DNA of 64,000 bases from an uncultured virus (IMG/VR IMGVR_UViG_3300037067_016575) (lineage: Duplodnaviria > Heunggongvirae > Uroviricota > Caudoviricetes), in the IMG/VR virus record IMGVR_UViG_3300037067_016575; one strand, written 5' to 3'. This document shows, in pieces, positions 904 through 58,276 of this stretch (its first letter is position 1; each line of letters starts with the position of its first letter). Below the pieces are notes generated by a model. The model saw only the letters and a program-made list of their open reading frames with translations, did no database searches and was not told the origin of the DNA. The translations under genes were made by a program, and so were the position numbers.

Positions 904-1344
904 TTATTCACGTTCCGTGACTACATCAAGGTCTGCGAATCGAGATACTGGTATTTGCGGGTTGAATTTCATCACCCGGTTTGTTACTAACTCATTAATG
1001 GTTTTTTGCAATTTTAAGAGTTGTTCAAAACTATCAATCTGAATGACGTGTTTATTCTTATTCGGGTAGAACGCATAGGTTTCATCGTACTTTTTTTGAC
1101 TTGTTGGTATGATTAATACTTCCACATCTGTTTTAAGATTAACGTATTCTGGGACTATGGGGCTATGGGCGGAATTATCAACAATATTACTTATTTCTAA
1201 TGTAGTAATACCTCCATGATCTCGCGTCACTGCTATGTGTTGCCCGTTATCGTGTGCCATTTCGTTCATCATTGAGATCAAGTAACTATATTGTGTTTCC
1301 GTCATTTTCACCATCCCAATCACTCCCGCAAGTACGTAATTCAA
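904..1344 (-). CDS. hypothetical protein with C-terminal RF tag (SRFADLDVV)
   Basis: ORF track; tag. Confidence 0.7.
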   Translation of the reverse strand: MNYVLAGVIGMVKMTETQYSYLISMMNEMAHDNGQHIAVTRDHGGITTLEISNIVDNSAHSPIVPEYVNLKTDVEVLIIPTSQKKYDETYAFYPNKNKHVIQIDSFEQLLKLQKTINELVTNRVMKFNPQIPVSRFADLDVVTERE

Positions 1345-1802
1345 TCGTGTTTTGTGACAACTTCAATTTCAGAAAACCGGTTGAACTGTTTTGGTTTCTT
1401 TTCTCCATTAACCAGAGGTTGGTTAATTTTTTCAATTTCGTTAAGGATACGGCGTAACTCGTCAATATCAGATTGGCTTTCGATAATTAATAGCCTCCCT
1501 CCTTTACAGAGGTTCCCCCGAATTTCACGGAACGTTTTACCTTTTTTCAACGGATATACCGTAACTTCATCTTTGATCAAATCGCTATGAATTATGACTT
1601 TCCTTATTTTTTCATGGGGGTCAACGTACTCACTATTTGGTGGTTCTCGTGGTTCTTCATCCGGATCGTAATAGCCGTCGTCGTAATCCTCGTCCTCATC
1701 CTCAATCTCATAGTCATCGTTGTCATCATATATCTCATCATTCGGGTCTGGATAGTCCTCGTCGTCATTGTAAAAACTAGCCTTACCTTCACTTTCCGAC
1801 AT
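1341..1802 (-). CDS. hypothetical protein, very acidic N-terminus, RF tag (NRFSEIEVV)
   Basis: ORF track; D/E/Y-rich N-terminus; tag. Confidence 0.75.
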   Translation of the reverse strand: MSESEGKASFYNDDEDYPDPNDEIYDDNDDYEIEDEDEDYDDGYYDPDEEPREPPNSEYVDPHEKIRKVIIHSDLIKDEVTVYPLKKGKTFREIRGNLCKGGRLLIIESQSDIDELRRILNEIEKINQPLVNGEKKPKQFNRFSEIEVVTKHD

Positions 1803-3314
1803 GATCCCACCCCAATAAATTAATTTAACGACTGTATTTCTGCATATTTTCTTGGACTTCTTTTCTCAAATCGTCCATTTTTTCAGGGTTTTTACTAGCT
1901 TCCGAAATCTCTTTACCAACGAGAAACGCATTTAGCATTATACCCGTTGTTTGATGTGCCTGCTTTACAAGAAGGCGTGTATGATTGGAATTAGCTTTTC
2001 GCATCCTCTCTGTGTTGAGTTCAAGAGATTTCGCACACACGTGTAAATGCTTCCCCATTTTCTCGTTTCCGACTGAATAAAAATCGCGAGACATATGTTC
2101 TAATGCATTACTTACGGATTCTATGTCATCTAATGATTCGTGTTGGATTGACAGCCAGTCGTCTTTTCCCATAATGTTCTCCATACGTTTTCACCTCACT
2201 TCTTTGTTATAACGCGTGCCACTAAAATATCTGTTTTCATCGTCATATTTTGTCCAACCATTTCCCATATTCTCTTTCTAACCGTTTCTGATAATCAGAA
2301 TAATCTTCCATACATTGCACTCTCTTGCGGAATATACTATGTACAGCTTGTTTTCGTTCAATTGGGGTTGACTCTTGTTTCATTCTCGATGCCGCAACAA
2401 CGATTGCCCCCACATGTTCTTTTAATGATGCATATGTATTATTGTCGGCACGATATCCCGTCCCCGACAGTACACCCAACGATCTGCGTTTATTGACCTC
2501 GTGAAAAATATCTTTTTGGTTGTATTCTGATACGTCGTCGAGAAGGGGTAAGAGTTCCCGTATTACAATATACATATGTATACTGTCATATCCGATGAGG
2601 TCTAACGCTTCGAGTAGTTCCGCTTTTGTTGACTTTATCTGCAATTCACAATCGTAACAGATGCCTTGAGATTCGCCTTGTTTATTCCAGATGATCGTTC
2701 TGTCTGGGTGTCGGTCAAATTGTGTAACTCTCACCTTATGTTTTCTGCAAAATTTACAGTAACCGATACCCATTTCGTTCACCCGATGTATAAATCTTTT
2801 TTAATATTCGTTGGTTCCCCGCATTTCTCGCGGAGCCGTTTGATTTCTTCGAACACCTCTTTATGGTGTTCTTTAAGGTCGTCCTGATGTTTAGTTAAGA
2901 TTTCAAGTGCTATATTTAACTCTTTATTTTGTTTTTCGGGGTCTTTGAGATTTATTGCATCTTTAATCCGCCTTATTGCAAAATTACTATGCATAGTCGT
3001 TCCGAGAACTTGGTGATACCAGAACGGAAGATCTTCACGAAATTTATATTCTTCATCCATCTACAATCTCTCCATAAGAGTTGTTATTATCAATTGTTAT
3101 CGGTTCTCCATCCCATTCTGATGGGAGAAGAAGCAATCCCTTGCCAAATTTGCCACAACGTGTGCATATACAGTCTTGAAATAGGTGGCCCATCGGCCAC
3201 CACGGTTTATCTTTATACCGCACCCGTTTCATTCCGGGTAGGATGGTTATCCATATATGATTACCGAATAGACATCTTATTGAGAATACCATACGTAAAT
3301 CCTCGCTGAAAAAG

Positions 3315-5247: not shown

Positions 5248-5655
5248 TCATAATACCTTTGTTCTGGTGAGATTTTTTTCGGTTTTTCCATTCGTTTTCA
5301 CCTGCGTTTTCTTCTTTTTGATCTCGGATTCCATTATTACATCGATGTCGCTGAACCTTGATTTTGTTAATTTTTGCGGGGTTCCGGGGTTATCGAATCC
5401 TATAATGTGACCCATATAATTTAGAGTCTCAATTGCCGCCCACGTCCTTACCATGATCTTTACAACATCGTTTTTACGACCGTCTTCTGGTATTTCTGGT
5501 ATGGAGATGTTATGCCCCATAAGGTATGCTTTTAAATCGTCAATATCTTTTTGAGTGTATTTTTCAGTCCAATGACGATCCGGGTTCTCTACATTATCAT
5601 TAACAAATTGAGAGAGGATTATTTGTTTAAGGCTAACATCTCTATCATCATCCAT
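5248..5655 (-). CDS. hypothetical protein with RF tag (SRFSDIDVI)
   Basis: ORF track; tag followed by a Lys-rich tail. Confidence 0.7.
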   Translation of the reverse strand: MDDDRDVSLKQIILSQFVNDNVENPDRHWTEKYTQKDIDDLKAYLMGHNISIPEIPEDGRKNDVVKIMVRTWAAIETLNYMGHIIGFDNPGTPQKLTKSRFSDIDVIMESEIKKKKTQVKTNGKTEKNLTRTKVL

Positions 5656-6029: not shown

Positions 6030-6680
6030 TTATACGATGTCGATGTTTGCAAAACGATTTTTGTTTTCCACGGTTGGTTCTTCTATTTCATTATAGTCTG
6101 GAATGATTAATTTAACAAATCTTACAAACGCTGTTTTATCTACGAAAAATATGAAGTTGTTATCGAGATCGATCCACCCCATATACTCAAGATAAAAAGT
6201 CCTTCGTTCTTCAACATCATCTGCGGTTTTATATAGGAAGCCACTGACCGGGTGTTTTTTAATAAAGGCTTCTTTGTCTGGATTCCTTGCAGCGATTACT
6301 TCATCAAGAAAAACGGATTCTTTCGTGCGGTTTCCATCCTTGAAATATTTTCCTGATGCAAGATCTTTAATTCTCGTTTTTACATCAGATTCGTCTGATT
6401 TATAACAGATATAATAAACTGGCACTTTATTAATGTTAAATGACCCAATTGCTGCTTCATCTTTAATCATAGAATCTGCAATGTTTTTGAGCGTCACTTG
6501 AACTGCACCAAACTCAAATTCCGCCGAACCCATGTAATCAAAGCTAAAGATCTTGTTCAGCATTTCAAAGGCTTCCTTTGATAATCCACCGTAGCGGTAA
6601 CCTCCACCAAAGGTAAATACGCCGGGATCACCCCACGGTTTCTTTAATCTCTGAATTAGATATGATGATCTTCCTACCAT
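6030..6680 (-). CDS. hypothetical protein with terminal RF tag (NRFANIDIV*)
   Basis: ORF track; GGAG SD; FDYMGSAEFEFG core. Confidence 0.8.
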   Translation of the reverse strand: MVGRSSYLIQRLKKPWGDPGVFTFGGGYRYGGLSKEAFEMLNKIFSFDYMGSAEFEFGAVQVTLKNIADSMIKDEAAIGSFNINKVPVYYICYKSDESDVKTRIKDLASGKYFKDGNRTKESVFLDEVIAARNPDKEAFIKKHPVSGFLYKTADDVEERRTFYLEYMGWIDLDNNFIFFVDKTAFVRFVKLIIPDYNEIEEPTVENKNRFANIDIV

Positions 6681-7634: not shown

Positions 7635-8015
7635 TTAAGGTTCGATTAAATCGATTTCTGCAAACCGGTTTTGTTTTTTAATTGGGTTTGTTCTATCTGT
7701 AGTTTCGTCTACCAGAATTAGTTTATCGTTTGGAGATACCAAGGGATCGGAATTTAACATTGTAATTAATTCTTTTGATTGTATTTGAACCCATTTCGGT
7801 TTTTTGTTGATATTTACAACGCAATTAAGTAGGGGGGTTATTCTTTTGTGATATCCATCTAACACTTCGGGAGAGATTTTGTTTCTTGATTGTGTTGAAC
7901 CTCTTGGAAATATTATAACACAAGGGGTTTTGCGTTTTCCGGTTGAACATGATGTGCAAATATACCATGAAAATAGTTTTGTTTTAACACCATCCCCCAT
8001 TCTTTCATCAACCAT
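7635..8015 (-). CDS. Cys/Zn-type hypothetical protein with RF tag (NRFAEIDLIEP*)
   Basis: WYICTSC..PC motif; resembles 8025-8366. Confidence 0.75.
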   Translation of the reverse strand: MVDERMGDGVKTKLFSWYICTSCSTGKRKTPCVIIFPRGSTQSRNKISPEVLDGYHKRITPLLNCVVNINKKPKWVQIQSKELITMLNSDPLVSPNDKLILVDETTDRTNPIKKQNRFAEIDLIEP

Positions 8016-8024
8016 GATACCACC

Positions 8025-8366
8025 TTAATCAATAAGATCTATATTTGCAAATCGGTTTTCTGATGCGTTCGGTTCCTTTTTGGTTTGGAATAACGAAGAA
8101 AGATCTGATAGGAAATCGGGTTCCTGCATTAATATCTGTTTGACTTCGGCAAACGAAACCAGTTGCCAGTTCGGGCGATGCGGGGGAGAGGTCATGTTAC
8201 ATATATCAAAAAACCTTATAATCTTAAGGTCATTTAACAGGTATTCCTTTTTCGCCTCTAATGTAAGATTAATTTTTGTATCTTGAACACGAAACGCGAT
8301 TTTCTTAACACACGGTTTTTCGCATTCTTGACATATTACCCAAATAGATACGTTTTGTTTTTGCAT
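8025..8366 (-). CDS. Cys/Zn-type hypothetical protein with RF tag (NRFANIDLID*)
   Basis: WVICQEC..PC motif; resembles 7635-8015. Confidence 0.75.
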   Translation of the reverse strand: MQKQNVSIWVICQECEKPCVKKIAFRVQDTKINLTLEAKKEYLLNDLKIIRFFDICNMTSPPHRPNWQLVSFAEVKQILMQEPDFLSDLSSLFQTKKEPNASENRFANIDLID

Positions 8367-9964: not shown

Positions 9965-10204
9965 CTACTCCGATAATGACACTATCTCCACGTCATCAAA
10001 CCGATTTTTTATAAGATTCGATAAACCTTGTGGGTTGAGTTCCCTCTCACGAAGTTCTTGGATTTTTTTAAGAACTTTGTGCGCTCTGGGGGATTCTCTC
10101 CACTCACACCGTTCACACCGTTTACCCATGTAAACCGTGCACCAATTATACCAATTACAGGTGTTTTTGATGTAATCCTCCAATTCATTCAACGAATTGA
10201 CCAT
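9965..10204 (-). CDS. small Cys-rich protein with RF tag (NRFDDVEIV)
   Basis: ORF track; tag. Confidence 0.7.
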   Translation of the reverse strand: MVNSLNELEDYIKNTCNWYNWCTVYMGKRCERCEWRESPRAHKVLKKIQELRERELNPQGLSNLIKNRFDDVEIVSLSE

Positions 10205-10208: not shown

Positions 10209-10601
10209 TTACTCCTTTGCGTCCTTATCTGTCACAATATCGATCTGGTTGAACCGTGTCGCTGCCGGTTTCTCTGGATCTTTGTGTTTTCTTTTTACAG
10301 TTGGTTTCTTAGAGGGTTTTTTGGGTTCAGGAACTACTGATCCGAGTGTTGCCGCTCGTCTAATTTTAGTAAGCGTATTTTTTATGAATTCCGGATCGTC
10401 TTCCTTTAAACTTTTAATAAGTTCAAGAATGAGGGTTTCGGTAAAATCTATATCCGCGTTTTGTTCGTCTATCATCAAAACAAAAGATATCATATCTTCG
10501 TATGATAGAGTTTCTTGCATGTCACAGGCAAGATCCGTTGCATCTATTGAAATGTCGTCTAGTGAATACTTTAATTTAACTCTCGGTAGTTTAGGTGGCA
10601 T
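10209..10601 (-). CDS. hypothetical protein with RF tag (TRFNQIDIV)
   Basis: ORF track; K/P-rich linker then tag. Confidence 0.75.
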   Translation of the reverse strand: MPPKLPRVKLKYSLDDISIDATDLACDMQETLSYEDMISFVLMIDEQNADIDFTETLILELIKSLKEDDPEFIKNTLTKIRRAATLGSVVPEPKKPSKKPTVKRKHKDPEKPAATRFNQIDIVTDKDAKE

Positions 10602-10786: not shown

Positions 10787-10996
10787 CTATTCTGTGGGTA
10801 ATACGAGGTCAATACCAAGGAATCTTGGTACAATTGGATCTGCTTTTTGAGGGGGTGTTTCCACTAAACAAAACGAACATTTATGCGGCACACATATAAT
10901 TTGGGTGTCATAATTAAGGAGTGTGCATTTCTGACCGTATATCATAATTTTTCCTGAATTGACACTATGCAGGCATCTGCACTTTAATTCTGACAT
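10787..10996 (-). CDS. small Cys-rich protein with RF tag (PRFLGIDLV)
   Basis: ORF track; tag. Confidence 0.65.
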   Translation of the reverse strand: MSELKCRCLHSVNSGKIMIYGQKCTLLNYDTQIICVPHKCSFCLVETPPQKADPIVPRFLGIDLVLPTE

Positions 10997-11001: not shown

Positions 11002-11460
11002 TTATCCCTCCATTACAAGATCTATTTCGGCAAACCGATTGAACGGTTTGGGGGGATTCAATTTAGCATTAAAGATATAATCAGATTCGGGTCTGCTCAA
11101 GTCATTATAGTCGATCCGATCTAACGAGATTTTGTTTGATTTTACGGTGTTTAATGCATTAACAATTTTGAGCGCGTGTATATGAGAGATGCCAGTCCAA
11201 TGTTTGCAGATAGTGCAAAATTGTTGATTTAATCTCGTATATTCCCCGTTATAGGTAAATTCTTTACATTTATTTCCGTGATTGTGATAAGCATCCAATA
11301 TACAAACAATCTCGCCAGTATTTGTAGCGCAGTTTCCTTTTATGAATATACTAGAAATCTCAATCTTTTCATTAAATACGTATTGAAATATTTCTTTGAT
11401 GGTTAAGTTTCCTTCACGAATTTGATAAAAACGGAGTTCCTTCATAATAATCACAAACAA
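11002..11460 (-). CDS. CxxC-xHW family protein with RF tag (NRFAEIDLV)
   Basis: QFCTICKHWTGIS; paralog of 40279-40728 and 12698-13024. Confidence 0.75.
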   Translation of the reverse strand: MFVIIMKELRFYQIREGNLTIKEIFQYVFNEKIEISSIFIKGNCATNTGEIVCILDAYHNHGNKCKEFTYNGEYTRLNQQFCTICKHWTGISHIHALKIVNALNTVKSNKISLDRIDYNDLSRPESDYIFNAKLNPPKPFNRFAEIDLVMEG

Positions 11461-11961: not shown

Positions 11962-12675
11962 TTACTTCCTGCAACTCCTAGAAATACCGTAGAAATCCCG
12001 TTCGTAGTAACCCCGTAATCTCCATTCGTTCGTGTGGGGGATAAACACCTGTCTTCTTGGGATCTCCGTGGAAAGTTCTTTTTTTTTAATTGTTTTCTTT
12101 GCAGGAGTTTTCTTCTTGGCTTTTGGTTTAGGGTTTGTCGTTTTCTTCGTCTTTGTTTTTTCTGCGGGTTTCGTTTGTGCTCCTTTATTCTGGTCTTCCG
12201 GGGGGTTTTCGAGAATTACAATATCTATATTCGCAAACCGATCTGCTGAGGGATGTTGTTTCGTGCCATCGTCGATAACGGGGTTCTTGTAATACGTGAA
12301 AAATCCTTTGTCGAATTTATCTTCATATTCCTTAATCGTATCCTTTAATTCCCTGATTTTGTTCTTGTTCTTTGTCAATACGGTATTTGTTTTTAATATA
12401 AGGTTTTTTTGGTCAAAGATCGTTTCACCTAACTCCTCTATTTTACTAGATAACGTCATCTCTTTTTTACGCAGGGTAGTTATTTGCATTTTTAAGGTTT
12501 TTATTTCTTCTTTTGCTTTTTCGAGTTCTACAAGTTGCCCTGCCGGCGTGGTCTTTTTTAATTTCTCGACTTCTTTTTTTGCCCGTTCTTCGCGTTTATT
12601 GGCGGATTCAACCCGTTTAAATGCCGCATAGAGAAAGTCTTTTTCGTGATCTCCCCAAATACCACCATATGACAT
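11962..12675 (-). CDS. coiled-coil protein with internal RF tag (DRFANIDIV) and Lys-rich tail
   Basis: Start moved to the ATG after the GGAGGTGG SD. Confidence 0.7.
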   Translation of the reverse strand: MSYGGIWGDHEKDFLYAAFKRVESANKREERAKKEVEKLKKTTPAGQLVELEKAKEEIKTLKMQITTLRKKEMTLSSKIEELGETIFDQKNLILKTNTVLTKNKNKIRELKDTIKEYEDKFDKGFFTYYKNPVIDDGTKQHPSADRFANIDIVILENPPEDQNKGAQTKPAEKTKTKKTTNPKPKAKKKTPAKKTIKKKELSTEIPRRQVFIPHTNEWRLRGYYERDFYGISRSCRK

Positions 12676-12697
12676 ATTACCACCTCCTTTTTGTTTA

Positions 12698-13024
12698 TTA
12701 TACAATATCTATTTCTGAAAACCGATTTGGTTTGTTTAATTTCTTTACCTTGTTTGACTTACCACGATTCATCTTTTTTAAATCGTCTATTATTGCTTGC
12801 GAGACCAATCCTTGTTTGAGTTGATTATATACCTCATTTAAATTTATCCCTCTCCAATGAGCGCATTTGATACAACACTTCTCTTTTTGATCTCCGGTAT
12901 ATGAAATGCACACGTTCGATTCATTGAAACAAAATGATGAAAGTTTTGGGATGTCTGATTCTGCATCTATATCATGTAACAGACAATGCCCTTTAACTAA
13001 TAATATGAAATTTATTTTTTCCAT
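12698..13024 (-). CDS. CxxC-xHW family protein with terminal RF tag (NRFSEIDIV*)
   Basis: CCIKCAHWRGIN. Confidence 0.75.
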   Translation of the reverse strand: MEKINFILLVKGHCLLHDIDAESDIPKLSSFCFNESNVCISYTGDQKEKCCIKCAHWRGINLNEVYNQLKQGLVSQAIIDDLKKMNRGKSNKVKKLNKPNRFSEIDIV

Positions 13025-14941: not shown

Positions 14942-15634
14942 TTACCTCCCTCGCCGCCTTTGTTTTTTGCTTAAATAATACTCTGCCGGGTTATCGACGT
15001 TGATTATAGCTAATTTCCCCCCGCAATCACACATAACTAGGTTGTTATGGAATTGTGGGACGACGGGTTTGTTATTGCCGATAACTAACTTTACCGTAGT
15101 ATGACCAACAAAGACCTTATTATACCCCGGAACCGGCTGTTTTTTTGCATAGAACACAAGATCGCGATCCCACATAATATCCTCAGGATCTTGTGATTCA
15201 ATTGGAACACCGGGTTTGAAACCCCCATGCACAAATATCCGGTTCTGATCGTCGATGTAATATAAAACCTGATTGTTGAAGAACTGTTTATGGGATTCGG
15301 GAATATTTGACACGTTGTAATCGTAAGATCTCATTGTGGCATTTCCCCCTTGATCCTGCCAAATATAGTTCACGTAAAATGCGTTATTAGGGTCTGAGTT
15401 CATCCAACCCATAAACCACGAACAGTGATTCCCACGTACATCAATACGATCCTTGATCTGTAATAACCTGTCAATACACTCTTTCGTGTGATCTCCGCCA
15501 TCGACGATATCCCCTAAAGTAATCAGACGATCTTTATCGTCGTTAAAATCCGCTTTCGCAAGGACTTCGTTTAGTGCGGATAATCTGCCGTGAATGTCAC
15601 CGATACAAAAACATCTCTTCATAATATCACTCAC
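14942..15634 (-). CDS. calcineurin-like metallophosphoesterase (phage Ser/Thr phosphatase-like)
   Basis: GDIHG, LGDIVDGG, RGNH, FVHGG, GHT motifs. Confidence 0.9.
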   Translation of the reverse strand: MSDIMKRCFCIGDIHGRLSALNEVLAKADFNDDKDRLITLGDIVDGGDHTKECIDRLLQIKDRIDVRGNHCSWFMGWMNSDPNNAFYVNYIWQDQGGNATMRSYDYNVSNIPESHKQFFNNQVLYYIDDQNRIFVHGGFKPGVPIESQDPEDIMWDRDLVFYAKKQPVPGYNKVFVGHTTVKLVIGNNKPVVPQFHNNLVMCDCGGKLAIINVDNPAEYYLSKKQRRRGR

Positions 15635-16083
15635 TAAATCACATCGATATCCGCAAACCTGTGATATGGCGGCACCGGTAATCTCTCTGGTACTAATTTT
15701 CCAGACCTCGTGTGTTTTCTACTATCTGGCACAACCTTAACAACCTGTCTTGTGGATAACTCAATCCCCCGTGGATCGCAATTGGGGATCACAAATTCCT
15801 TTTTACTCCCCGTGAATACAATTGCCCGGTATTCGCCTTTATACCACCTAGATGAATAGGCAATAAAATTTTCTGGTGTTTCCGTCCATCCGCAACTCAT
15901 ACGATCTTTTTCAGAGCGGTGTATATTTTTTGTACTTAAACCCCTCCGCACATAACTGATACTTTCATCATCAATTCCATTTTCACGGAGAAATTTAATT
16001 ACATCTTTGATGATATGAAATTGGTATACCCCAGTACATGTTTTTGCATTCTCTGGGTTTAACCACTCTTTATTATTTGCCAT
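15634..16083 (-). CDS. hypothetical protein with terminal RF tag (HRFADIDVI*)
   Basis: ORF track; tag. Confidence 0.75.
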   Translation of the reverse strand: MANNKEWLNPENAKTCTGVYQFHIIKDVIKFLRENGIDDESISYVRRGLSTKNIHRSEKDRMSCGWTETPENFIAYSSRWYKGEYRAIVFTGSKKEFVIPNCDPRGIELSTRQVVKVVPDSRKHTRSGKLVPERLPVPPYHRFADIDVI

Positions 16084-40886: not shown

Positions 40887-41165
40887 TCATGGTAGTACTA
40901 GATCAATCTCCGCAAACCGGTTTTTCTTAAGAGGAGGGTCACTCATATTTTCCTGCGACGGGGGATATAATTTGATCTCGTCTGCATCCATGATATCTCT
41001 AGAATACATGTCACAATCTCTTCCTAATTGGCAAAATTCTTCCGGAGAGAGTAAGATGCTTATTTTACCGGGTCTTACAGAAATACATCCCCTTGTGAAT
41101 ACAAGTTCTACGGCCCTTTCACCGTGACCTTTGTATTCAACGATCTTCCATGATTTCATTTGCAC
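40887..41165 (-). CDS. hypothetical protein with RF tag (NRFAEIDLVLP*)
   Basis: ORF track; tag. Confidence 0.7.
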   Translation of the reverse strand: MQMKSWKIVEYKGHGERAVELVFTRGCISVRPGKISILLSPEEFCQLGRDCDMYSRDIMDADEIKLYPPSQENMSDPPLKKNRFAEIDLVLP

Positions 41166-41568
41166 TCACCACGTCGAGGTCTTCAAATCTACCTTTTGTT
41201 TTTGGCTGTGGATCTTCCCGATTCTTGTATCTCTCCTGTAATCTTGAATATATTTTATCAAGATTCTGTTTTCCGAGACGGTTGAGTGTAGAGTAACCAC
41301 TTTCAAAAAAAGGTGTTAATTCTGGTTGTGACCCGGCTTCTTTTATGTGGCGTAAAAGTTCCCTCGTGTCTTTTGAGTCGTCCATTATCCATTGCAGAAT
41401 GCACCTTTGACCTGCAATAAACGGGCAACACTGGCAACCGTCACCAAACTGGCCGCTCAATCCAAAATAATGGGGGATAACACAAATCGGATGCTTATCC
41501 GGCCTTGATTCGGTTTCCATCAGGGCTGCACGTAAGATCTCTAATTTCAATTCTGCCTCATTAACCAT
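41137..41568 (-). CDS. Cys-containing protein with RF tag (GRFEDLDVV)
   Basis: ORF track; tag. Confidence 0.7.
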   Translation of the reverse strand: MVNEAELKLEILRAALMETESRPDKHPICVIPHYFGLSGQFGDGCQCCPFIAGQRCILQWIMDDSKDTRELLRHIKEAGSQPELTPFFESGYSTLNRLGKQNLDKIYSRLQERYKNREDPQPKTKGRFEDLDVVSANEIMEDR

Positions 41569-41581: not shown

Positions 41582-41619
41582 TAATTACTTAATTACTTCT
41601 GTAATTAATTAAGTAATTA
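41582..41619. repeat. AT-rich palindromic intergenic element
   Basis: taattacttaatta-N10-taattaagtaatta. Confidence 0.7.
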
Positions 41620-41940
41620 GATTAAATCAATATCGGCAAACCGATTGAACGGTTCTTTAGGAATCAGATTATGCCCGTGAAGGATTTCTCCCCCATCAAT
41701 AAAATTCGTTCTGGATATTTTAACAACAACGTGTCCTTTATTAAATGGGACGTGTATCCAAAATGTTCCGGACACCGCTTCACAACCGCACTGTGTTTGA
41801 CGACATGCCACGAACAGATCCTCAAGATCGCCTTTTTTGTCCCATTTGATATCTTTTTGATTTGCGCAATTTTTATGATATCGCTGGATTGCATCCATTA
41901 CTGGTTGCGGAACACGGAATTTTTGCATATGTATCACCAA
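41617..41940 (-). CDS. hypothetical protein with terminal RF tag (NRFADIDLI*)
   Basis: ORF track; tag. Confidence 0.7.
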   Translation of the reverse strand: MVIHMQKFRVPQPVMDAIQRYHKNCANQKDIKWDKKGDLEDLFVACRQTQCGCEAVSGTFWIHVPFNKGHVVVKISRTNFIDGGEILHGHNLIPKEPFNRFADIDLI

Positions 41941-41942: not shown

Positions 41943-42461
41943 TTACACGACAATATCAATAACGGCGAACCGATTGAATTTTTTTACGGGTTTAACCTGT
42001 TTCGGTTTTTGATTGACTCCGAACCACCGATAAATCTCAGCCCACCCAACGGCGACAGCCGCATTGTATTCATCGTAAGGCGTATAAACTTCCGGTTGAC
42101 CGTAATTCTTATCTATGAAATATCCGTTCGCCATCCTGATTACGAATAAATTGTAATCACTAATTTCCTTAGCGTATGGAGGGAGATAACTGATCCGGAA
42201 ATCATCGTAGAGGTTGCCATGAGCCGGACAGTTATTCTTAAACCAGACACACATCATATCCTGATCGATCTTCTGACTTTTAGCAATCTTACGGACTTTT
42301 GGGACGATTTTCTTTAATCGACCCAATAACGCTTCGTCATTACAGAACCAATCATACCACCCGGCATTACACATAGACTCTCGCGATCCATCTGCGTATA
42401 CTCCATTGTCCCAATTCTCAAGGAACTGCCTGATTGAAATGTTATCCATCATATCGATCAC
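41943..42461 (-). CDS. phage-type protein (WYDWFC..FKNNCP..LYDDFR) with terminal RF tag (NRFAVIDIVV*)
   Basis: ORF track; tag. Confidence 0.75.
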   Translation of the reverse strand: MIDMMDNISIRQFLENWDNGVYADGSRESMCNAGWYDWFCNDEALLGRLKKIVPKVRKIAKSQKIDQDMMCVWFKNNCPAHGNLYDDFRISYLPPYAKEISDYNLFVIRMANGYFIDKNYGQPEVYTPYDEYNAAVAVGWAEIYRWFGVNQKPKQVKPVKKFNRFAVIDIVV

Positions 42462-42464: not shown

Positions 42465-42848
42465 TTAATAATCAAGGTCTGAAAATCGTTCGGTGGATAC
42501 TGGAACGGGTTTTGTCGGCGCTTGTATTTCCAGTTTGACAATCTGTCCACCGACGAAATAATTATCTTCTGTCAGTTTTTTTACGATCTTCACGTCGTTG
42601 ATTATCTTGGTGAAAATGAACACCCCCTTTACTTCTTCCCGTGTCCATCCATTGTGAGATATTTTGTCCAATGCTACTATGTCGGCTTCTTTGTCCCACT
42701 CTTCTAAATCCTGATATGACTTATGAAGATAATAGGTCATCAGGAAATTTAACACATCACCCGGAATCTGATAATCGCTATGATCCTCGTAATATTTTTC
42801 ATTTACAGTTCCAATCAGGTTCTTTGGGTATTCCTGCATAGTTCTCAC
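42465..42848 (-). CDS. hypothetical protein with terminal tag (ERFSDLDY*)
   Basis: ORF track; tag variant. Confidence 0.7.
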   Translation of the reverse strand: MRTMQEYPKNLIGTVNEKYYEDHSDYQIPGDVLNFLMTYYLHKSYQDLEEWDKEADIVALDKISHNGWTREEVKGVFIFTKIINDVKIVKKLTEDNYFVGGQIVKLEIQAPTKPVPVSTERFSDLDY

Positions 42849-42851: not shown

Positions 42852-43181
42852 TTATACGATATCAATATTGGCAAACCGGTTTCTGTTTATTTTTTCTGGG
42901 GTTATGATAACATCTTCCGGGATCGTGCTACCTTCAATGACGCCACATATCCAATTAGGATGTGTTTCTGAATATATTTTCTCTGTTGTGCTGCCTTCCA
43001 TTGCGCAAAACTTACACGTTCTGCAAAAACCTTTGTATGGATTTAAGTACTTATTACGATCTAACCCATCCATCGGTGAATACATTTTGCATTTTTTGTG
43101 TCTGTTGGCATATTTTACGCTTTGTCCACCTAATGACGCTTTGAAGATAAAACAATACCAGTGAGATTTTCTTTCTTTCAT
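42852..43181 (-). CDS. WYC..CxxC family protein with terminal RF tag (NRFANIDIV*)
   Basis: ORF track; tag. Confidence 0.7.
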   Translation of the reverse strand: MKERKSHWYCFIFKASLGGQSVKYANRHKKCKMYSPMDGLDRNKYLNPYKGFCRTCKFCAMEGSTTEKIYSETHPNWICGVIEGSTIPEDVIITPEKINRNRFANIDIV

Positions 43182-43561
43182 GGTTCCACCAAATCGATCT
43201 CGGCAAACCGATTTTTCTTTTCTGGTTTTTTCTTTTCCTGATTGTCTTGATTAAATTGAGAGATTGGTTCGAGCGGATATTTTTCACGGAATTCTTTAAA
43301 TATACTCATGATAATATCTGTACTGACAACCTCGAAATCGTGACCGTTATTTCCTTCGTATGTGTAGAAATGTTCCAGAATTTCATTCTCAAGAAGATCG
43401 TAAATGTTTATTGATCTTTCGGGAATTGAGGTGGGTTTTGGATCGGGAATTATCTCTGCAAATGCACATACTTCGCAATATGCTACTGAATTAATAGGGC
43501 AGTCTTTCTTGTTTTGTACTGTCCCGCGTTCATCGAATTTACAAAAATATTGAACGACCAT
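43178..43561 (-). CDS. Cys-containing protein with RF tag (NRFAEIDLVEP*)
   Basis: ORF track; tag. Confidence 0.7.
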   Translation of the reverse strand: MVVQYFCKFDERGTVQNKKDCPINSVAYCEVCAFAEIIPDPKPTSIPERSINIYDLLENEILEHFYTYEGNNGHDFEVVSTDIIMSIFKEFREKYPLEPISQFNQDNQEKKKPEKKNRFAEIDLVEP

Positions 43562-44568: not shown

Positions 44569-44772
44569 TCACCAGTAATCGAGATCTTCAAATCGCGGCT
44601 TTATGATCGTTTTTTCTTCTGTGGTGCTAGTTCCGGATACCCCCGTGAGGTGAGTAGACGCTGTTTTTTTCCTCTTTTCTATTTCTTCCAACCTTTTCTC
44701 TATATCAAGAAGTGTGTCATTGTCTATGTCACTAAATCTCGCTACAAAATTCTGATGTGTGTTTAGAGACAT
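44569..44772 (-). CDS. 67-aa protein with two RF tags
   Basis: ARFSDIDN near the N-terminus and PRFEDLDYW* at the C-terminus. Confidence 0.6.
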   Translation of the reverse strand: MSLNTHQNFVARFSDIDNDTLLDIEKRLEEIEKRKKTASTHLTGVSGTSTTEEKTIIKPRFEDLDYW

Positions 44773-45799: not shown

Positions 45800-46435
45800 T
45801 CATACTTGTTCCACCAAATCGATCTCAGCAAACCGATTTTTCTTTTCCGTGTTTTTATTAGTGGGGGTGTTTAAACTAATGGCAATTTCGTTGATCTTTT
45901 TAATGATCTCTTCCCGGTTATTCAGAATTTCGCCATCACATAGATCACTTTCGCAAATCACCATCAGTTTCCCAATCTCTTTGACCTTTTCGATAAACGA
46001 AACGTTTTCCTGTATATCTTCCACTCTGTCGAGTTTTTGAATCCTGAATGGTTGTTTTTTATTAGTATATATTTTGTAGAAACTACGGTGGGCGTGGTAA
46101 TCGGAAGTTTTATTGGTGATTTCCCATTCTGATGGAACGTAAGGAACGTATAACACATCCCCTTTTGTTTCGTATCGTGATTTTATCGGGACATTGATAC
46201 AGAATGGTTGGTTTTCTGCATACATCTTTTCAAACGCCGTAACTCGTTTTTGAATTGGGTGTTTGTCCAATTTGAACCCATAAAGATCTTTCCCACCCAG
46301 TCCATTCAGCCAGCCATTACCGGATTCAACCACAACGCCTTTTTTATCGAAAAAAATGATGTTTTTAAGTTCACGGTCTTCGATAAAATACGGCCTGTAA
46401 AAATCACTGTATGCGAAGATTGTAATTCCTGCCAT
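45800..46435 (-). CDS. hypothetical protein with RF tag (NRFAEIDLVEQV*)
   Basis: Start at MAGIT after GAGGAGG; the upstream extension in the ORF track overlaps tRNA-Lys. Confidence 0.75.
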   Translation of the reverse strand: MAGITIFAYSDFYRPYFIEDRELKNIIFFDKKGVVVESGNGWLNGLGGKDLYGFKLDKHPIQKRVTAFEKMYAENQPFCINVPIKSRYETKGDVLYVPYVPSEWEITNKTSDYHAHRSFYKIYTNKKQPFRIQKLDRVEDIQENVSFIEKVKEIGKLMVICESDLCDGEILNNREEIIKKINEIAISLNTPTNKNTEKKNRFAEIDLVEQV

Positions 46436-46459
46436 AAGATTCCTCCTCGTTTTTGTGTA

Positions 46460-46567
46460 TGCGCCGGAGGGGATTTGAACCCCCGACCAACGGATTTCTT
46501 CCGGGCTAATATGACCCATTGCTGCCCGTTAAAAGTCCGCCGCTCTACCTGACTGAGCCACCGGCGC
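46460..46567 (-). tRNA. tRNA-Lys(UUU) with canonical 37/38 intron
   Basis: GCGCCGG/CCGGCGC-A; GCGGA-CT TTT A-[intron CGGGC..GCCCG]-TCCGT; GGGG-TTCAAAT-CCCC. Confidence 0.9.
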
Positions 46568-54087: not shown

Positions 54088-54459
54088 TCAATCCCCCATT
54101 ATAAAATCTATTTCGGCAAACCTTTTTTGCGCCCCGATTTTACACGTTTCCTTCTTCGGGGGCGGAGTTGAATTAATCTCGGTTTCTGTTATTATCTCTA
54201 TATGTTCAAACCGGTTCGGGGGTTTTGGTATGATAATCCCCTTTATCCACCCGGGATGTTTTTCCGCATACTCCTGTTCTTTAACACTGCCAACAAACGC
54301 ACAGTTAAAACAGGAGTCACAAACACCTCCCCGCCCTAGAGGTGTGTATATGTAATCCTTGCAGGTTGTTTTTCGGATTACTGTAAGACCGTATCCCATG
54401 TCTTTGTTTAAGATCATGCAATACCAGTGGGGATTGAATAATGAATCGCCGTATCCCAT
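54088..54459 (-). CDS. WYC..CxxC family protein with two RF tags
   Basis: NRFEHIEII and KRFAEIDFI. Confidence 0.7.
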   Translation of the reverse strand: MGYGDSLFNPHWYCMILNKDMGYGLTVIRKTTCKDYIYTPLGRGGVCDSCFNCAFVGSVKEQEYAEKHPGWIKGIIIPKPPNRFEHIEIITETEINSTPPPKKETCKIGAQKRFAEIDFIMGD

Positions 54460-54661: not shown

Positions 54662-55462
54662 TCAGAACATATCCGCAACATCGATCCGGTCTGCGATCTT
54701 GGAACTGGTTTTGACAGGTTTACCCTTTTCGGGTCTGCCGTCCGGATGGAGTTCTGGAACCTCTGACTCATCAGCAGCTTTTGCGCCGCCATCTAAGTAA
54801 TCGATTTCGTTCTCCATTACAACGTCAACCGTCGAGAACCGGTCTTTTTCTTCGTCCAGAATTTCCATGATCTCTTTTTGGAGCGGAAGGATCTGGTCTG
54901 CCATGATCATATTCCGCATCTCTTCGATCCGGTGGTCGATCTGAACGTCTTCCGTTACATTGACCGTTTTAAGCCGATCCAGCATCTTAAGAAGTGCTCC
55001 CCGTGTGCGGGAAGTCATCTTATCCCCGTTTTTCTCAATGGTCTCGGAGATCTTCTTGAGTACCTTCTCGTGGATCTGGGTCTGGATCTGGGAGAGCATC
55101 TCTTCCATGAGGTTTTCAGTCTGCAAACCCGACATGGAGAGTGGGATGAAATGGATATCTGCCTTTAACGTCGGGTCAATCGCTTGCATCGAGAGATGTG
55201 CGTCTTGTACGACCTTTTCAAGCTGACCTTTCCCGATATCGTTAGTGATCCTCATCGTGTAAAACTTGGCGCATGTTCCCACGGCCATGTTTACCTGTTG
55301 CCTTACCACCCCGATCTGATTGCGCTGCTCTTTCTGGAAATGATAATACAATTTTTTGGAGTTCTCAGACTCGTTGATCTCGGTCTTATCCGTGAAATTC
55401 GGACTTGACATCTTGAGTTCAACGACGTAGAGTTGTCCTTTTGCTGTTGTTACTGCTGCCAT
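54662..55462 (-). CDS. helical protein of the AAA operon, RF tag (DRFSTVDVV)
   Basis: GGTGAGGT SD; co-oriented with the DUF2997-like gene. Confidence 0.75.
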   Translation of the reverse strand: MAAVTTAKGQLYVVELKMSSPNFTDKTEINESENSKKLYYHFQKEQRNQIGVVRQQVNMAVGTCAKFYTMRITNDIGKGQLEKVVQDAHLSMQAIDPTLKADIHFIPLSMSGLQTENLMEEMLSQIQTQIHEKVLKKISETIEKNGDKMTSRTRGALLKMLDRLKTVNVTEDVQIDHRIEEMRNMIMADQILPLQKEIMEILDEEKDRFSTVDVVMENEIDYLDGGAKAADESEVPELHPDGRPEKGKPVKTSSKIADRIDVADMF

Positions 55463-55523: not shown

Positions 55524-55742
55524 TTACCGGTGGACGAAAACTTCTGATCCCTTCTCTTCGAGGTAGGGCGTGTGGGCTTCCGCCATGAGATCCTGTTCCT
55601 TGACATTGGACTTGATCCCGTTGGATTCGAGATGCTTTCGGAGCTGCGCAAGGACTTCCGTGCATTTTGCACTCTTGAATCCTTCTGCGTGAACTTCGAG
55701 TTCCCCGCCATTCGAGATCCGGTATGTAATATTTTCTGACAT
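55524..55742 (-). CDS. DUF2997-like small protein
   Basis: ITYRISNGGELEVHAEGFKSAKC.E....L pattern; position after the DUF1257-like gene. Confidence 0.7.
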   Translation of the reverse strand: MSENITYRISNGGELEVHAEGFKSAKCTEVLAQLRKHLESNGIKSNVKEQDLMAEAHTPYLEEKGSEVFVHR

Positions 55743-55744: not shown

Positions 55745-56143
55745 TTAGAACCTCGTTGCGGTAATCAGGATCTTACCGTCCTTGTCCTTTGTTACCTGCT
55801 GCGTGAATCCCTGCTTCGTGTTGAAGTCCTTGATGACCGCCGCCTGATACTGATCCTGTACCATGTTGGTCACCTTGGCGAATTCCTTGTTGCACTGCCA
55901 CGGGTCGCCCTGCATCTCGTAGCTCTTCTTGTCCTCGGACTTGATAAACCTGAGATTACCCTGTTTCTGGTAACCATCAATCGGGGGATAGTTGACCTTG
56001 ATCATGGTCTTGTCGGGATTCATGGAGTAAGTGAACTTGACTTTCTCCGTTGAAAGCTCTTTCTGCATTGCTTTGAGTGCGTCTTCCAGCATCTTTGCGC
56101 TGGTTAACTCGCACTTTGTTTTGAGTGTCGTTATATGTGACAT
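55745..56143 (-). CDS. DUF1257 (Ycf35)-like protein
   Basis: MSHITTLKT...L..AL..M..GD.W......Q.Y.......GF; start trimmed. Confidence 0.7.
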   Translation of the reverse strand: MSHITTLKTKCELTSAKMLEDALKAMQKELSTEKVKFTYSMNPDKTMIKVNYPPIDGYQKQGNLRFIKSEDKKSYEMQGDPWQCNKEFAKVTNMVQDQYQAAVIKDFNTKQGFTQQVTKDKDGKILITATRF

Positions 56144-56229
56144 TCTTGTGATACCTCGTAAATATTGGGTGTTCGGACTTCGATACTGGATACCAACTTC
56201 CGGAACGAACCGGGAAAGTGGTTTGGATG

Positions 56230-56523
56230 TCACCCGCAATAATGCACAGAAACCTTACTAGGATTGATTCCGTTGGCTTTTAAATGTGCGATCAGTGCTT
56301 GGTCGTTCCCGGAACAAATAACCTCGCCATTCGAGATTATTACGTCCGTACGGGGTGACGGGTCAACCGGAACCACACTCAAATCCTCATGCCCTAGTGC
56401 CGTAAGGTTTGCTCCCGGCATAAAGGCAAGGGAAAAAAGAGGGTTGTGGTTAACCATATCCTCCCGGTGCCGCTCAGTCAATATCGCCGAGATCGGCTTT
56501 GCTGATTTCATCTTTAACGTCAT
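56230..56523 (-). CDS. hypothetical protein overlapping the AAA gene end
   Basis: ORF track. Confidence 0.55.
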   Translation of the reverse strand: MTLKMKSAKPISAILTERHREDMVNHNPLFSLAFMPGANLTALGHEDLSVVPVDPSPRTDVIISNGEVICSGNDQALIAHLKANGINPSKVSVHYCG

Positions 56524-58276
56524 TTTCCGTTACCACGTCGATTGTGCTGGCCCGGGTTCCGATCTTCTCTTTTGATGATACGATCTTCTTTCGGGCTTCT
56601 TCATCGTCCGACGCATTGATCGCGTTCTCTTCCGCCCAACGGATCATTGCATCCAGAATGTCCTTCTTCTGAGTGGTGATCGGTGTTACATCCTTCATCG
56701 CCTTGACAATGTGATCCGTCGTCAGGGGTTTTGCCCCTTCGTCGAATGCGTTACCAAGTGCGTCCTGAATGGTGTTACGGATTTCACGACCTACAAACCC
56801 TTCGCTGGCATCGGCCAGCTTTTCAAGGTCGAAATCTTCTGGGTTACGCTTGACGGCCTTGATGTGGATACGGAAGATCTCGATCCGTTCCTTCCGAGTC
56901 GGAGCGTTCACGAAAAACATCTTTGGGAACCGGCTCATCAGTTCTGCCTTGAGGCTCGCGTGATCGTTGCACGTTGCTACGACAAAAACGCCTTTCGACT
57001 CTTCCATCTCCGTCAGGAACGACCCGAACAACCGGGCGGATTCCTCGTGCATTTCACCGTTCTGGCCGGCACCAAGTGCCTTTTCGATCTCATCAATCCA
57101 GAGGATACAGGGAGCCAGTGCCTTGGCGAGTTTCCACGTGTTCCTCATGTTGTTAGACGACTCGCCGTAATATTTACTGACGAGCTGGGACATGTCCAAC
57201 CGTAGGAGCGGAAGCCGGAGTTCGTTGCCGCACGCCTTCGCGACCAGTGATTTACCAGAGCCGGGAACACCGACCATGATAATACCACGGGGCGGGTCAA
57301 TACCGTATTCCCGAGCCTCCTTTCCGAAGTGCTTTGAGGCAGATCGGATGTACGCTTTCAGGGTGTTAAGTCCCCCAATAGACTCCGACGTTTCCTCCGG
57401 TTCCCAGTACTCAAGCTGACCGGACTTCTTGATGATCTGCTTTTTCTCGCTGATGATCGTCTTGATGTTCAGATCGCCGTTGATCAGACACTTGGCGAAC
57501 ACGTTCTCGCATTCTTCGAGCGTGAGACCCAGCGCCGCCGCTACTATCGCGTCCTTGTTGGCGTTTACCTGATCATTGAGAGTCTTCTTCTTCGCCAGTA
57601 GTTTGGTCAGCATCGCTTTCTGCGATTTTGCATTCTCGGGATCACTTGTTTCTTTGATGTTATCCTTCATCGTCTGTTCCTGATCGGACAGCCCTTTGAT
57701 CGCAGCGCATAAGATCGCCTCGATCTCGGACTTGTCCGGCAGTGGCACGTCGATGATGCTGATCACTTTCTGCAAATCGACTGGAATAGATACGACCGGT
57801 GAGACAAGGATGATGATTTTCCTCTGTCCTTTCAGAACCGGGACGATATCACGGAGTTTACGCTGTACCAACGGAACATCCTTCATGAATCCGTGGGTAT
57901 CCAGCATAATGAAAATGTTTCCAGCGGTTCGTACTTGTTTGTCGTCTGCTCCCTTGTACTGTTCTGTGAGCTTCTTGGAACGGACTGCCTCCATTGCGTC
58001 GAACAACGTAAGTATCGTAGGGGTGTCGTCGTTTTCCGTTGAGTTTTGATCGGTATTTGTCTGAACCCATGTCGTGTTTGTTACATCGATCATCCGATGA
58101 TCGACATTCCTGAAACCTGATGCACCGGAATAGATATACACGGTGCGGTGTTCATCTTTGGCGATATCCGCAATGATTTCTATGACACGAGATTCCTCAT
58201 GGGTTTCAATGGCAATAACCGGGTATCGAGCCCGGATGTGGGTTGATAATTCCTTTTTTAGTTCTGCAATTCCCAT
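56474..58276 (-). CDS. Ycf46-type AAA+ ATPase
   Basis: IRARYPVI.IETHEE.R N-terminus, degenerate first AAA domain, Walker A GVPGSGKS, Walker B LWIDEIEK, sensor ATCN, WA..NA..AS; tail TRASTIDVV. Confidence 0.9.
   Translation of the reverse strand: MGIAELKKELSTHIRARYPVIAIETHEESRVIEIIADIAKDEHRTVYIYSGASGFRNVDHRMIDVTNTTWVQTNTDQNSTENDDTPTILTLFDAMEAVRSKKLTEQYKGADDKQVRTAGNIFIMLDTHGFMKDVPLVQRKLRDIVPVLKGQRKIIILVSPVVSIPVDLQKVISIIDVPLPDKSEIEAILCAAIKGLSDQEQTMKDNIKETSDPENAKSQKAMLTKLLAKKKTLNDQVNANKDAIVAAALGLTLEECENVFAKCLINGDLNIKTIISEKKQIIKKSGQLEYWEPEETSESIGGLNTLKAYIRSASKHFGKEAREYGIDPPRGIIMVGVPGSGKSLVAKACGNELRLPLLRLDMSQLVSKYYGESSNNMRNTWKLAKALAPCILWIDEIEKALGAGQNGEMHEESARLFGSFLTEMEESKGVFVVATCNDHASLKAELMSRFPKMFFVNAPTRKERIEIFRIHIKAVKRNPEDFDLEKLADASEGFVGREIRNTIQDALGNAFDEGAKPLTTDHIVKAMKDVTPITTQKKDILDAMIRWAEENAINASDDEEARKKIVSSKEKIGTRASTIDVVTENDVKDEISKADLGDID

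Follow-up and report, generated by a model that had tools for sequence, protein, structure and literature searches.

A single nine-residue peptide is carried by 35 of the 128 minus-strand open reading frames (ORFs, called here by their lower coordinate), about 27%, in a 64,000-nucleotide stretch (the window) of the uncultured virus IMG/VR IMGVR_UViG_3300037067_016575 (Caudoviricetes). This tag is real, occurs far above chance, is selected as a peptide and is kept in relatives, and it is probably a short linear docking or address tag. Our preferred reading, whose probability we put at roughly 0.55, is that it acts as a docking tag on the disordered tether of about 35 small soluble proteins and is read by one binding site, the most likely reader being the AAA ATPase encoded by ORF 56474 of the same window.

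The strict form of the pattern (RF..[ILV][DE][ILV]) matched 30 times in the three minus-strand frames, always within a long ORF (30/30) and close to its end, and once in the three plus-strand frames. In 125 minus-strand ORFs it was observed 28 times, whereas residue-shuffled versions (n = 2000) averaged 0.20 and never exceeded 3. Inclusion of three displaced ORFs (10787, 28865 and 44569), which brought the minus-strand total to 128, and of one-residue variants gave 36 tag copies in 35 ORFs. The initial annotation of this DNA had named 34 of these, all of which (34/34) carry the motif or a one-residue variant where it had been placed, and the thirty-fifth is the ATPase itself. The end of the tag lies 0-4 residues from the stop in 24 of the 36 copies and up to 84 residues from it in the remainder; nine copies form the exact protein end and 27 do not stand at the very end.

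The core consensus is [N]-R-F-[AS]-[DEN]-I-D-[ILV]-[VI], with an invariant Arg and near-invariant Phe, Ile and Asp (Asn at -1 in 21 of the 36 copies, Phe in 34, Ile in 27, Asp in 31 or Glu in 5, and Val in 26 or Ile in 8 at the last position). The residue after Phe is Ala or Ser and the next Asp, Glu or Asn, the residue before the last is Ile, Leu or Val, and a further Phe stands at -2 in 8 copies. After the core there follows either a stop within a few residues or [T/M]-[E/P]-x-[E/D], and of the 16 copies long enough to have a position +11, 15 are acidic there. Upstream, residues -16 to -2 contain 18.7% Lys (8.7% in the proteome) and 14.3% Pro (4.2%), which bears out the Lys/Pro-rich linker first described and makes the upstream flank basic, not acidic. 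A 15-nucleotide tandem repeat (3 copies, 36234-36278) encodes the (KKPV)x3 linker of ORF 36198, indicating that linkers can lengthen by repeat expansion.

Transmembrane-like segments were found in none of the 34 small tagged proteins compared to 13 of 93 untagged ones, and no small tagged protein matched a known enzyme family in Pfam and PHROGs scans (125 and 126 ORFs respectively), while the recognisable enzymes other than the AAA ATPase, and TnpB, have no tag. The earlier claim that enzymes and membrane proteins lack the tag thus holds except that the ATPase tail carries a tag-like motif. The tagged bodies are mostly unrelated to one another, as had been stated, but slightly less so than claimed, since BLASTP with the tag removed revealed three small paralogue groups (11002 and 40279; 36957, 42852 and 54088; 41617 and 42465). 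CxxC motifs occur in 13 of 35 tagged and 18 of 93 untagged proteins, and two Cys patterns, C..C.HW.G and C..C..CAF, were seen by eye to recur among the tagged proteins, suggesting that several families of small zinc-ribbon-like proteins belong to the tagged set. An AlphaFold2 (AF2) model of tagged 11002, built on a four-row alignment, had a mean predicted local distance difference test score (pLDDT) of 50.6 with a low-confidence tail and was little informative, and a protein-atlas search returned no usable match for 45800 and, for 25948, only viral look-alikes below threshold.

That selection acts on the peptide was borne out by the codons and by the relatives. For pairs of tags with the same residue, the observed and expected codon identities were 0.47/0.49 (Asn), 0.29/0.34 (Ala), 0.48/0.56 (x), 0.32/0.34 (Ile), 0.25/0.29 (position 6) and 0.27/0.28 (Val), so that six tag positions are at background, which fits long-standing selection on the peptide. 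The synonymous variation reported initially is therefore free at the Asn, Ala, Ile, Val and x positions but not at Arg, which is CGG in 24 of 34 copies compared to 20% overall; Arg-Phe pairs outside tags are CGG in 13 of 31 cases (42%), and hence part of this bias comes from the Arg-Phe context and the remainder is unexplained. TTT and GAT are mildly over-used in tags. The tag DNA of 43178 and 45800 is identical at 41 of 45 nucleotides on unrelated bodies, and that of 7635 and 28520 at 38 of 45, so new tags seem to arise by copying of gene ends.

A search of 1.84 billion representative proteins with a profile made from 33 tag regions gave 16 matches at E<=0.001, 12 of them the window's own; the others were P0005, P0014, P0016 and P0017, to which family searches added P0003, P0004 and P0064. 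P0005 has three tag copies, each behind a Cys-rich module, and the tags of the other six score 18.8-30.5 bits with a matrix derived from 30 of the window's tags (lowest training score 18.8). In five pairs of relatives the tag was identical at 44 of 54 residues and the rest at 457 of 658, with insertions and deletions falling in the linkers. This contrast is modest, yet the tag is present in every relative compared, and P0003 and P0004 keep it at 25-57% body identity.

The tag-bearing clade looks small in public data, to judge from these and further sequence searches. A word-index search with the tag profile gave 13 matches, nearly all the window's own, and the ATPase 56474 had no close relative in a viral contig collection. 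Degenerate DNA patterns of the tag gave 0 matches in the same collection and a looser pattern 23 loci, none with multiple tags. At least 120 loci were matched in metagenome contigs, where several tags occurred only on the window's own contig among the matches listed. Three bacterial matches in genome contigs, two deep in long frames and one in a short, probably spurious ORF, were set aside as chance. At 14 of the 23 looser-pattern loci the match was to one unrelated conserved ORF ending in NNRF[SA][EK]ID[LF]V..ST-stop, found once each in many unrelated viral and giant-virus contigs; this ORF fits the tag pattern by chance and may be a spurious frame over a conserved gene. The identical element is present in the sequencing runs of four studies, and other contigs of those runs, including a 19-kb contig at equal depth, match the window over tag DNA only (28512-28577 and other tag sites), so that further tagged genes probably lie outside the window.

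The ATPase 56474 (600 residues) matches phrog_8638 over its full length (6e-110). Pfam finds no domains in it other than AAA and lid, the former being nearest to those of VAT/Cdc48/p97. Its N-terminal region has 37 homologues (about 29% identical, about 520 residues, with the source name 'SpoVK/Ycf46/Vps4 family'), and the protein is of Ycf46 type in having the N-terminal region of that family plus one classic AAA domain. In a fold search with its AF2 model (mean pLDDT 85.9) about 600 columns aligned to D1-D2 chains of the p97/VAT type, which makes it a pseudo-D1 plus active D2 protein with no N-domain. Literature searches on Ycf46 in phages found nothing relevant. Downstream lie genes for a DUF1257 (domain of unknown function)-like protein (E 0.019, 15.6 bits, cut-off 22.2; phrog_20456, 1.8e-7) and a DUF2997-like protein (Table 1). 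A passage of PMC4284462 describes a DUF1257 (Ycf35)/DUF2997 gene pair for cyanobacteria. The block 54088-58357 comprises the ATPase, a 97-residue ORF, the DUF1257-like and DUF2997-like genes and tagged 54662 and 54088, and its G+C content reaches 47-51% at 54-58 kb compared to about 40% in the window, which suggests a separately acquired module.

It is the C-terminus of this ATPase that points to it as the reader. A C-terminal extension is found only in the window ATPase and two close relatives, and is missing from 31 more distant homologues (about 490-560 residues; alignment A3). The extension holds TRASTIDVV in the window protein and SRAQTIDLV in its closest relative, P0020, the tails being otherwise diverged, so that both share the register R-x-x-x-I-D-[VL]-V. 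Scored with the tag matrix, TRASTIDVV (13.4 bits) ranked first among the 13,031 9-mers of the 98 proteins outside the training set; the next four were relaxed tags and the best other reached 5.3 bits. About 10 of the 34 ATPase family members in the alignment were judged by eye to end in hydrophobic-x-acidic-hydrophobic. Among the bacterial and phage homologues P0022-P0054 the best match to the tag matrix was the classic AAA arginine-finger strand, G-R-F-D-E-I-F-F-V, at 7-10.6 bits in 22 of 33, compared to a chance maximum of 5.3 bits in the window's untagged proteins; the tag may mimic this strand, or the likeness may be accidental.

The ATPase was then used as a co-folding target, with its tail removed (residues 1-560), together with the DUF1257-like and DUF2997 proteins and a 30-residue tag segment as partner. 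The verdict was 'weak support' (ipSAE 0.44/0.44/0.41; 0.00 in three controls, including one in which the ATPase was replaced), with a partner pLDDT of 58-60 and runs agreeing in at least 73% of contacts. In calibration, 116 of the 157 solved complexes passed the mark, as did 2 of the 215 mismatched pairs; those passing at scores of <=0.60 comprised only 18 of the 157 solved complexes, together with both mismatches. We took the guess as already likely because the ATPase tail resembles the tag. Since the score was 0.00 once the ATPase was replaced, the result does not favour the DUF1257-like and DUF2997 chains as the site of docking. Thus, of the readers that the initial annotation had proposed, the ATPase 56474 drew some support, from its tag-like 9-mer and from a co-fold pass that was lost on its replacement, but 55745 and 55524 drew none from the co-fold. 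As the co-fold support is weak the ATPase stays a candidate reader, and docking of the tag on the ATPase or its gene module is, in our estimate, a little short of an even chance.

Several points weigh against the ATPase as reader. The tail motif of the second close relative, P0021, is degenerate (DRSEILDYV, 1.8 bits), the tail of the window protein has a pLDDT below 50 at residues 566-583 with no docking in cis in the AF2 monomer model, and an ATPase that carries the tag could just as well be a further client of some unseen reader. A co-fold pass as weak as this one is more often wrong than right unless the guess is already likely, and the job (four chains with their own alignments) was unlike the calibration and reported no interface. 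The ATPase family is widespread in bacteria and phages with no sign of a proteome-wide tag. In the mycobacteriophage Corndog, only gp96 (KVRVLDL-stop) and perhaps gp95, among 46 minus-strand coding sequences of 47488-68705, have vaguely similar ends; gp95 was not similar to ORF 54662 (E 0.64), and the neighbourhood of gp96, an AAA protein, gave neither a DUF3150 nor a DUF1257 match. The Arg codon bias (CGG in 24/34) makes a nucleotide-level influence at that codon possible, all the genes are predictions, and no more than 71-83 kb of the element has been recovered, which leaves room for a true reader encoded beyond the window or by the host.

Under the preferred reading, the peptide [K/P-rich linker]-(F)-N-R-F-[A/S]-[D/E/N]-I-D-[I/L/V]-[V/I], with an optional [T/M]-E-x-E, would serve as a short linear docking motif, placed where a disordered tether ends. 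About 35 small, soluble and largely unrelated proteins of one mobile element and its few known relatives carry it, and one common binding site would read all copies. The ATPase would in this clade have gained a C-terminal tail with the tag register R-x-x-x-I-D-[VL]-V, and the small proteins, by copying the motor's own tail, could plug into the site that also receives it. That site may be on the ring itself, to which the co-fold lends weak support, or on an unseen partner. The tagged proteins would then be either clients, to be unfolded or removed at set times, or adaptors delivering other proteins to the motor. The core of the initial proposal, a genome-wide short linear address label, held in respect of peptide-level selection, restriction to the coding frame and conservation in relatives; that the tag is for docking rather than cleavage or modification, that it has one single reader and that this reader is the ATPase, we infer. 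More speculative, and in our view improbable, is a proteome-wide viral addressing system in which one protein in four would be an exchangeable head on a handle that copies the unfoldase tail and docks the head on the motor, as adaptors or as clients whose lifetime the motor sets; as an adaptor library, such proteins would hand host proteins (for example defence factors) to the viral unfolding machine. Here the likeness of the tag to the arginine-finger strand would allow insertion at the interface between ring subunits.

The most serious rival, itself unlikely, is that the tag docks on some other hub, host-encoded or outside the window (a ubiquitin-like beta-grasp protein, a clamp, a protease ring or a scaffold), with the ATPase just another client. 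The motif on the ATPase is what a client would show, the ATPase tail does not dock in cis in the monomer model, and proteasome HbYX (hydrophobic-Tyr-any) tails are a precedent for docking tails shared between an ATPase and unrelated proteins. The core psi-[D/E]-psi-psi followed by acidic residues, as at +11, together with F-x-x-I, also resembles the SUMO-interacting motif (SIM), the LC3-interacting region (LIR) and the Atg8-interacting motif (AIM), which typically add a strand to a beta-grasp partner: [VIL]-x-[VIL]-[VIL] occurs in 30 of 35 tagged and 19 of 93 untagged tails, with an acidic residue within 4 in 21/35 and 9/93 respectively, and F-x-x-[ILVM] in 34 of 36 tags. The SIM core with its acidic flank is a pattern match only, however, and F-x-x-[ILVM] is common in any case (49/93 untagged tails); the LIR/AIM consensus is [WFY]-x-x-[LIV] after acidic residues, whereas the residues ahead of the aromatic in the tag are basic, and the invariant Arg and preferred Asn of the tag fall outside either consensus. 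The scanned ORFs of the window included no recognisable gene for a ubiquitin-like protein, a clamp or a protease ring, and the co-fold signal depended on the ATPase chain. The PIP box (PCNA-interacting peptide; Q-x-x-[ILM]-x-x-[FYW]-[FYWL]) was found in 0/35 tagged and 0/93 untagged C-terminal 40-mers, APIM (the AlkB homologue 2 PCNA-interacting motif; [KR]-[FYW]-[LIVA]-[LIVA]-[KR]) in 0/35 tagged proteins, and an HbYX end (in the last three residues) in 0/35 tagged and 5/93 untagged.

It is still less likely that the tag is a cargo-loading or virion-packaging signal, taking small proteins into a capsid or shell for delivery to the next cell. A body, a flexible linker and a short C-terminal peptide are indeed the build of encapsulin cargo, and the tagged proteins are small, soluble and given no function by Pfam or PHROGs. 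Against this, no capsid, portal, terminase, shell or encapsulin family was recognised among the scanned ORFs of the 64-kb window, beyond which the element extends, a motif-bearing ATPase of 600 residues would be odd cargo, tags can be internal and up to three per protein, and 27% of ORFs as cargo would be unusual. We regard as quite improbable a self-associating strand, by which tags, pairing mutually and with the tail of the ATPase, would gather the tagged proteins into a condensate or mixed oligomers with no dedicated receptor. Beta-prone residues abound in the core, with complementary charges (R and D/E), and P0005 and 54088 carry several copies, but an invariant Arg with near-invariant Phe, Ile and Asp fits a shaped pocket better than a generic zipper, and the co-fold put the tag, weakly, against an ATPase that had no tail. 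Least probable, and very unlikely, is that the tag is a by-product of DNA or RNA (a gene-end recombination site, promoter, ribosome-binding signal or spreading 3' cassette) or a mere protease cleavage site: the CGG, TTT and GAT preferences, the near-identical tag DNA on unrelated bodies, by which tags move or convert between genes, and the resemblance of P0005 to modules separated by tags are outweighed by background codon identity at six of nine positions, by the CGG already common in Arg-Phe pairs outside tags, by the confinement of minus-strand matches to the coding frame with a single plus-strand match, by a distance to the stop of 0-84 residues and so no fixed distance to the next start, by the peptide kept in P0003 and P0004 on diverged bodies and, for cleavage, by the nine tags at the exact protein end with nothing left to remove.

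Three narrower candidates were also rejected. A PDZ class III ligand ([D/E]-x-hydrophobic with a free carboxylate) or a ligand of a tail-specific protease would fit the ends of only 9 of 35 proteins, the others running on for 1-84 residues; a Shine-Dalgarno sequence or promoter within the tag lacks the fixed distance to the next start; and the reading of the tag as an arrest peptide was likewise discarded.

Known cases in which a short docking peptide connects various proteins to a single machine are the clamp-binding boxes, the HbYX tails that dock on the proteasome and the tails of ClpX adaptors. The ClpX-binding (XB) peptide of SspB-type adaptors of E. coli ClpXP docks the adaptor on an AAA+ unfoldase via the zinc-binding N-domain of ClpX, and shares with the tagged proteins a folded body, a flexible linker and a short C-terminal peptide. 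The peptide sequence differs, however, the tail here is common to 35 proteins including the motor, and this motor, the only AAA+ gene product of the window, is Ycf46/Cdc48-like with a pseudo-D1 and no zinc-binding N-domain. HbYX tails on PAN/Rpt ATPases, archaeal Cdc48, Blm10/PA200 and assembly chaperones dock on the proteasome, and are alike in that one short tail occurs on an AAA+ ATPase and on unrelated proteins; they require the last three residues with their Tyr, whereas 27 of the 36 tags are not at the very end, and no proteasome-like ring was seen in the window. The p97/Cdc48 cofactor motifs (the VCP-interacting motif, VIM, the VCP-binding motif, VBM, and the SHP box) and the Vps4 pairing of the microtubule-interacting and trafficking (MIT) domain with the MIT-interacting motif (MIM) bring many proteins to one classic-clade AAA+ ATPase. 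They too are short linear motifs on many different proteins, the single ATPase reader being here a candidate only, but they bind an N-terminal or MIT domain and ATPase 56474 has neither. Encapsulin cargo-loading peptides and the T4 capsid targeting sequence are short terminal peptides that address unrelated proteins to one shell, which is the likeness to the tag; the T4 signal is N-terminal and cleaved, in contrast to tags that are partly internal or repeated, and the window has no recognised shell or capsid gene.

Literature searches (titles and abstracts) found no published equivalent of the tag, in keeping with the initial annotation, nor any report of a mobile element with one such docking peptide on some quarter of its proteins. 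Were the ATPase the reader, the tag would open directly to experiment an AAA+ family that is widespread in phages, bacteria, cyanobacteria and plastids but has no known function, would assign dozens of otherwise uninterpretable small viral ORFs to a function class and, as a nine-residue handle with a defined partner, would be a compact tool to recruit proteins to an unfoldase; should the broader addressing system prove true, it would be the first mechanistic handle on the orphan Ycf46/Ycf35/DUF2997 module.

Table 1. Tagged ORFs, the ATPase gene group and other recognised genes of the window (positions in nucleotides; distances in residues)
Feature	Position	Strand	Details
Tagged ORF	904..1344	minus	SRFADLDVV at 919-945, 4 before stop
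Tagged ORF	1341..1802	minus	NRFSEIEVV at 1356-1382, 4 before stop
Tagged ORF	5248..5655	minus	SRFSDIDVI at 5335-5361, 28 before stop, then MESE
Tagged ORF	6030..6680	minus	NRFANIDIV at 6033-6059, protein end
Tagged ORF	7635..8015	minus	NRFAEIDLI at 7644-7670, 2 before stop
Tagged ORF	8025..8366	minus	NRFANIDLI at 8031-8057, 1 before stop
Tagged ORF	9965..10204	minus	NRFDDVEIV at 9980-10006, 4 before stop
Tagged ORF	10209..10601	minus	TRFNQIDIV at 10233-10259, 7 before stop
Tagged ORF	10787..10996	minus	PRFLGIDLV at 10802-10828, 4 before stop
Tagged ORF, Cys-rich C..C.HW.G family	11002..11460	minus	NRFAEIDLV at 11014-11040; tag kept in relatives P0003, P0004
Tagged ORF	11962..12705	minus	DRFANIDIV at 12217-12243, internal, 84 before stop
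Tagged ORF	12698..13024	minus	NRFSEIDIV at 12701-12727, protein end
Tagged ORF	15634..16083	minus	HRFADIDVI at 15637-15663, protein end
Tagged ORF, variant	25948..26553	minus	PRLSDLDIV at 26011-26037 (Leu for Phe), 20 before stop; 12.9 bits
Tagged ORF	28132..28530	minus	NRFAVIDIV at 28177-28203, then MESE; tag kept in relative P0016
Tagged ORF	28520..28849	minus	NRFAEIDLI at 28529-28555, 2 before stop
Tagged ORF	28865..29215	minus	NRFADVEIV at 28880-28906, then NENE
Tagged ORF	29136..29654	minus	NRFEHIEIV at 29196-29222, 19 before stop
Tagged ORF, variant	34836..35372	minus	GRFGDMDIV at 34899-34925, 20 before stop; 12.4 bits
Tagged ORF	35731..36168	minus	TRFNQIDIV at 35734-35760, protein end
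Tagged ORF	36198..36740	minus	NRFEHIDIV at 36204-36230; linker (KKPV)x3
Tagged ORF, C..C..CAF family	36957..37229	minus	NRFAEIDLV at 36960-36986, protein end
Tagged ORF, paralogue of 11002	40279..40728	minus	NRFAEIDLV at 40288-40314
Tagged ORF	40887..41165	minus	NRFAEIDLV at 40896-40922
Tagged ORF	41137..41568	minus	GRFEDLDVV at 41167-41193, 9 before stop
Tagged ORF	41617..41940	minus	NRFADIDLI at 41620-41646; tag kept in relative P0014
Tagged ORF	41943..42461	minus	NRFAVIDIV at 41949-41975
Tagged ORF, shortened variant	42465..42848	minus	ERFSDLDY at 42468-42491, protein end
Tagged ORF	42852..43181	minus	NRFANIDIV at 42855-42881, protein end
Tagged ORF	43178..43561	minus	NRFAEIDLV at 43187-43213
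Tagged ORF, variant	44569..44772	minus	PRFEDLDYW at 44572-44598, protein end; weaker ARFSDIDND near N-terminus
Tagged ORF	45800..46519	minus	NRFAEIDLV at 45812-45838
Doubly tagged ORF	54088..54459	minus	NRFEHIEII at 54190-54216 and KRFAEIDFI at 54100-54126; both kept in relative P0017
Tagged ORF, ATPase gene group	54662..55462	minus	DRFSTVDVV at 54818-54844, 51 before stop; 9/9 kept in relative P0064
DUF2997-like partner gene	55524..55742	minus	Pfam E 1e-4, 22.5 bits, cut-off 24.1
DUF1257/Ycf35-like partner gene	55745..56143	minus	Weak Pfam match; start set at internal Met
Ycf46-type AAA+ ATPase, candidate tag reader	56474..58276	minus	Tag-like TRASTIDVV at 56531-56557 in clade-specific C-terminal tail
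HD hydrolase	3315	minus	Pfam/PHROGs
M50-like membrane protein	13834	minus	Pfam/PHROGs
NinI-like phosphatase	14942	minus	Pfam/PHROGs
TnpB-type RNA-guided nuclease	19880-21154	same strand as other genes	Pfam/PHROGs
Partial second TnpB, cut by window end	2-616	same strand as other genes	Pfam/PHROGs
GINS-like protein	22537	minus	Pfam/PHROGs
RNA ligase	24240	minus	Pfam/PHROGs
NrdG-like radical SAM activase	44936	minus	Pfam/PHROGs
Three tRNA genes	46822-48056

Almost all genes of the window are on the minus strand (125 minus-strand and 18 plus-strand ORFs in a greedy call), and few of their products were named by Pfam or PHROGs. The window corresponds to the reverse strand of a metagenome contig some 71 kb long, and identical proteins occur on contigs of up to 83 kb, so the element is at least that large and is only partly covered. 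The GINS-like gene scored 26.5 bits for the Sld5 domain (cut-off 22.3) and 22.5 for Gins51_C (cut-off 27), and matched NCBIfam Gins23 at 1e-11 but with 44.9 bits against a cut-off of 120, and GINS in the PDB at 0.063. Its sequence, below curated cut-offs, hints at an archaeal host. The ATPase 56474 and ORF 17761 have database relatives in bacterial phages. A methanogen-infecting archaeal virus, as originally suggested, was not upheld, the GINS-like gene being the one gene behind it and several genes having bacterial-phage relatives.

Paralogy also occurs among untagged genes, in a trio of 42-47% identity (31013-31654, 31657-32367 and 60222-61049), in a pair with a common C-terminal half that is 41.7% identical (49873-50652 and 52018-52764) and in a weak pair (8868-9437 and 61390-62112). 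An 18-nucleotide motif, TTCCGGTTCAYGTTCCGG, has 12 copies at <=3 mismatches, all on the coding strand (minus; 38504, 43629, 50680, 51471, 51994, 52791, 53312, 58340, 60197, 60944, 63060 and 63846), compared to a chance expectation of 0.24. The copies are mostly intergenic, one standing ahead of the ATPase gene, and those at 38504, 43629, 53312, 58340 and 60197 have a T run before them and a GAGGTGA-like ribosome-binding site downstream. With the AA that follows it the motif could form a 6-bp hairpin (TTCCGG/CCGGAA), and it is probably a regulatory or processing signal common to one class of genes.

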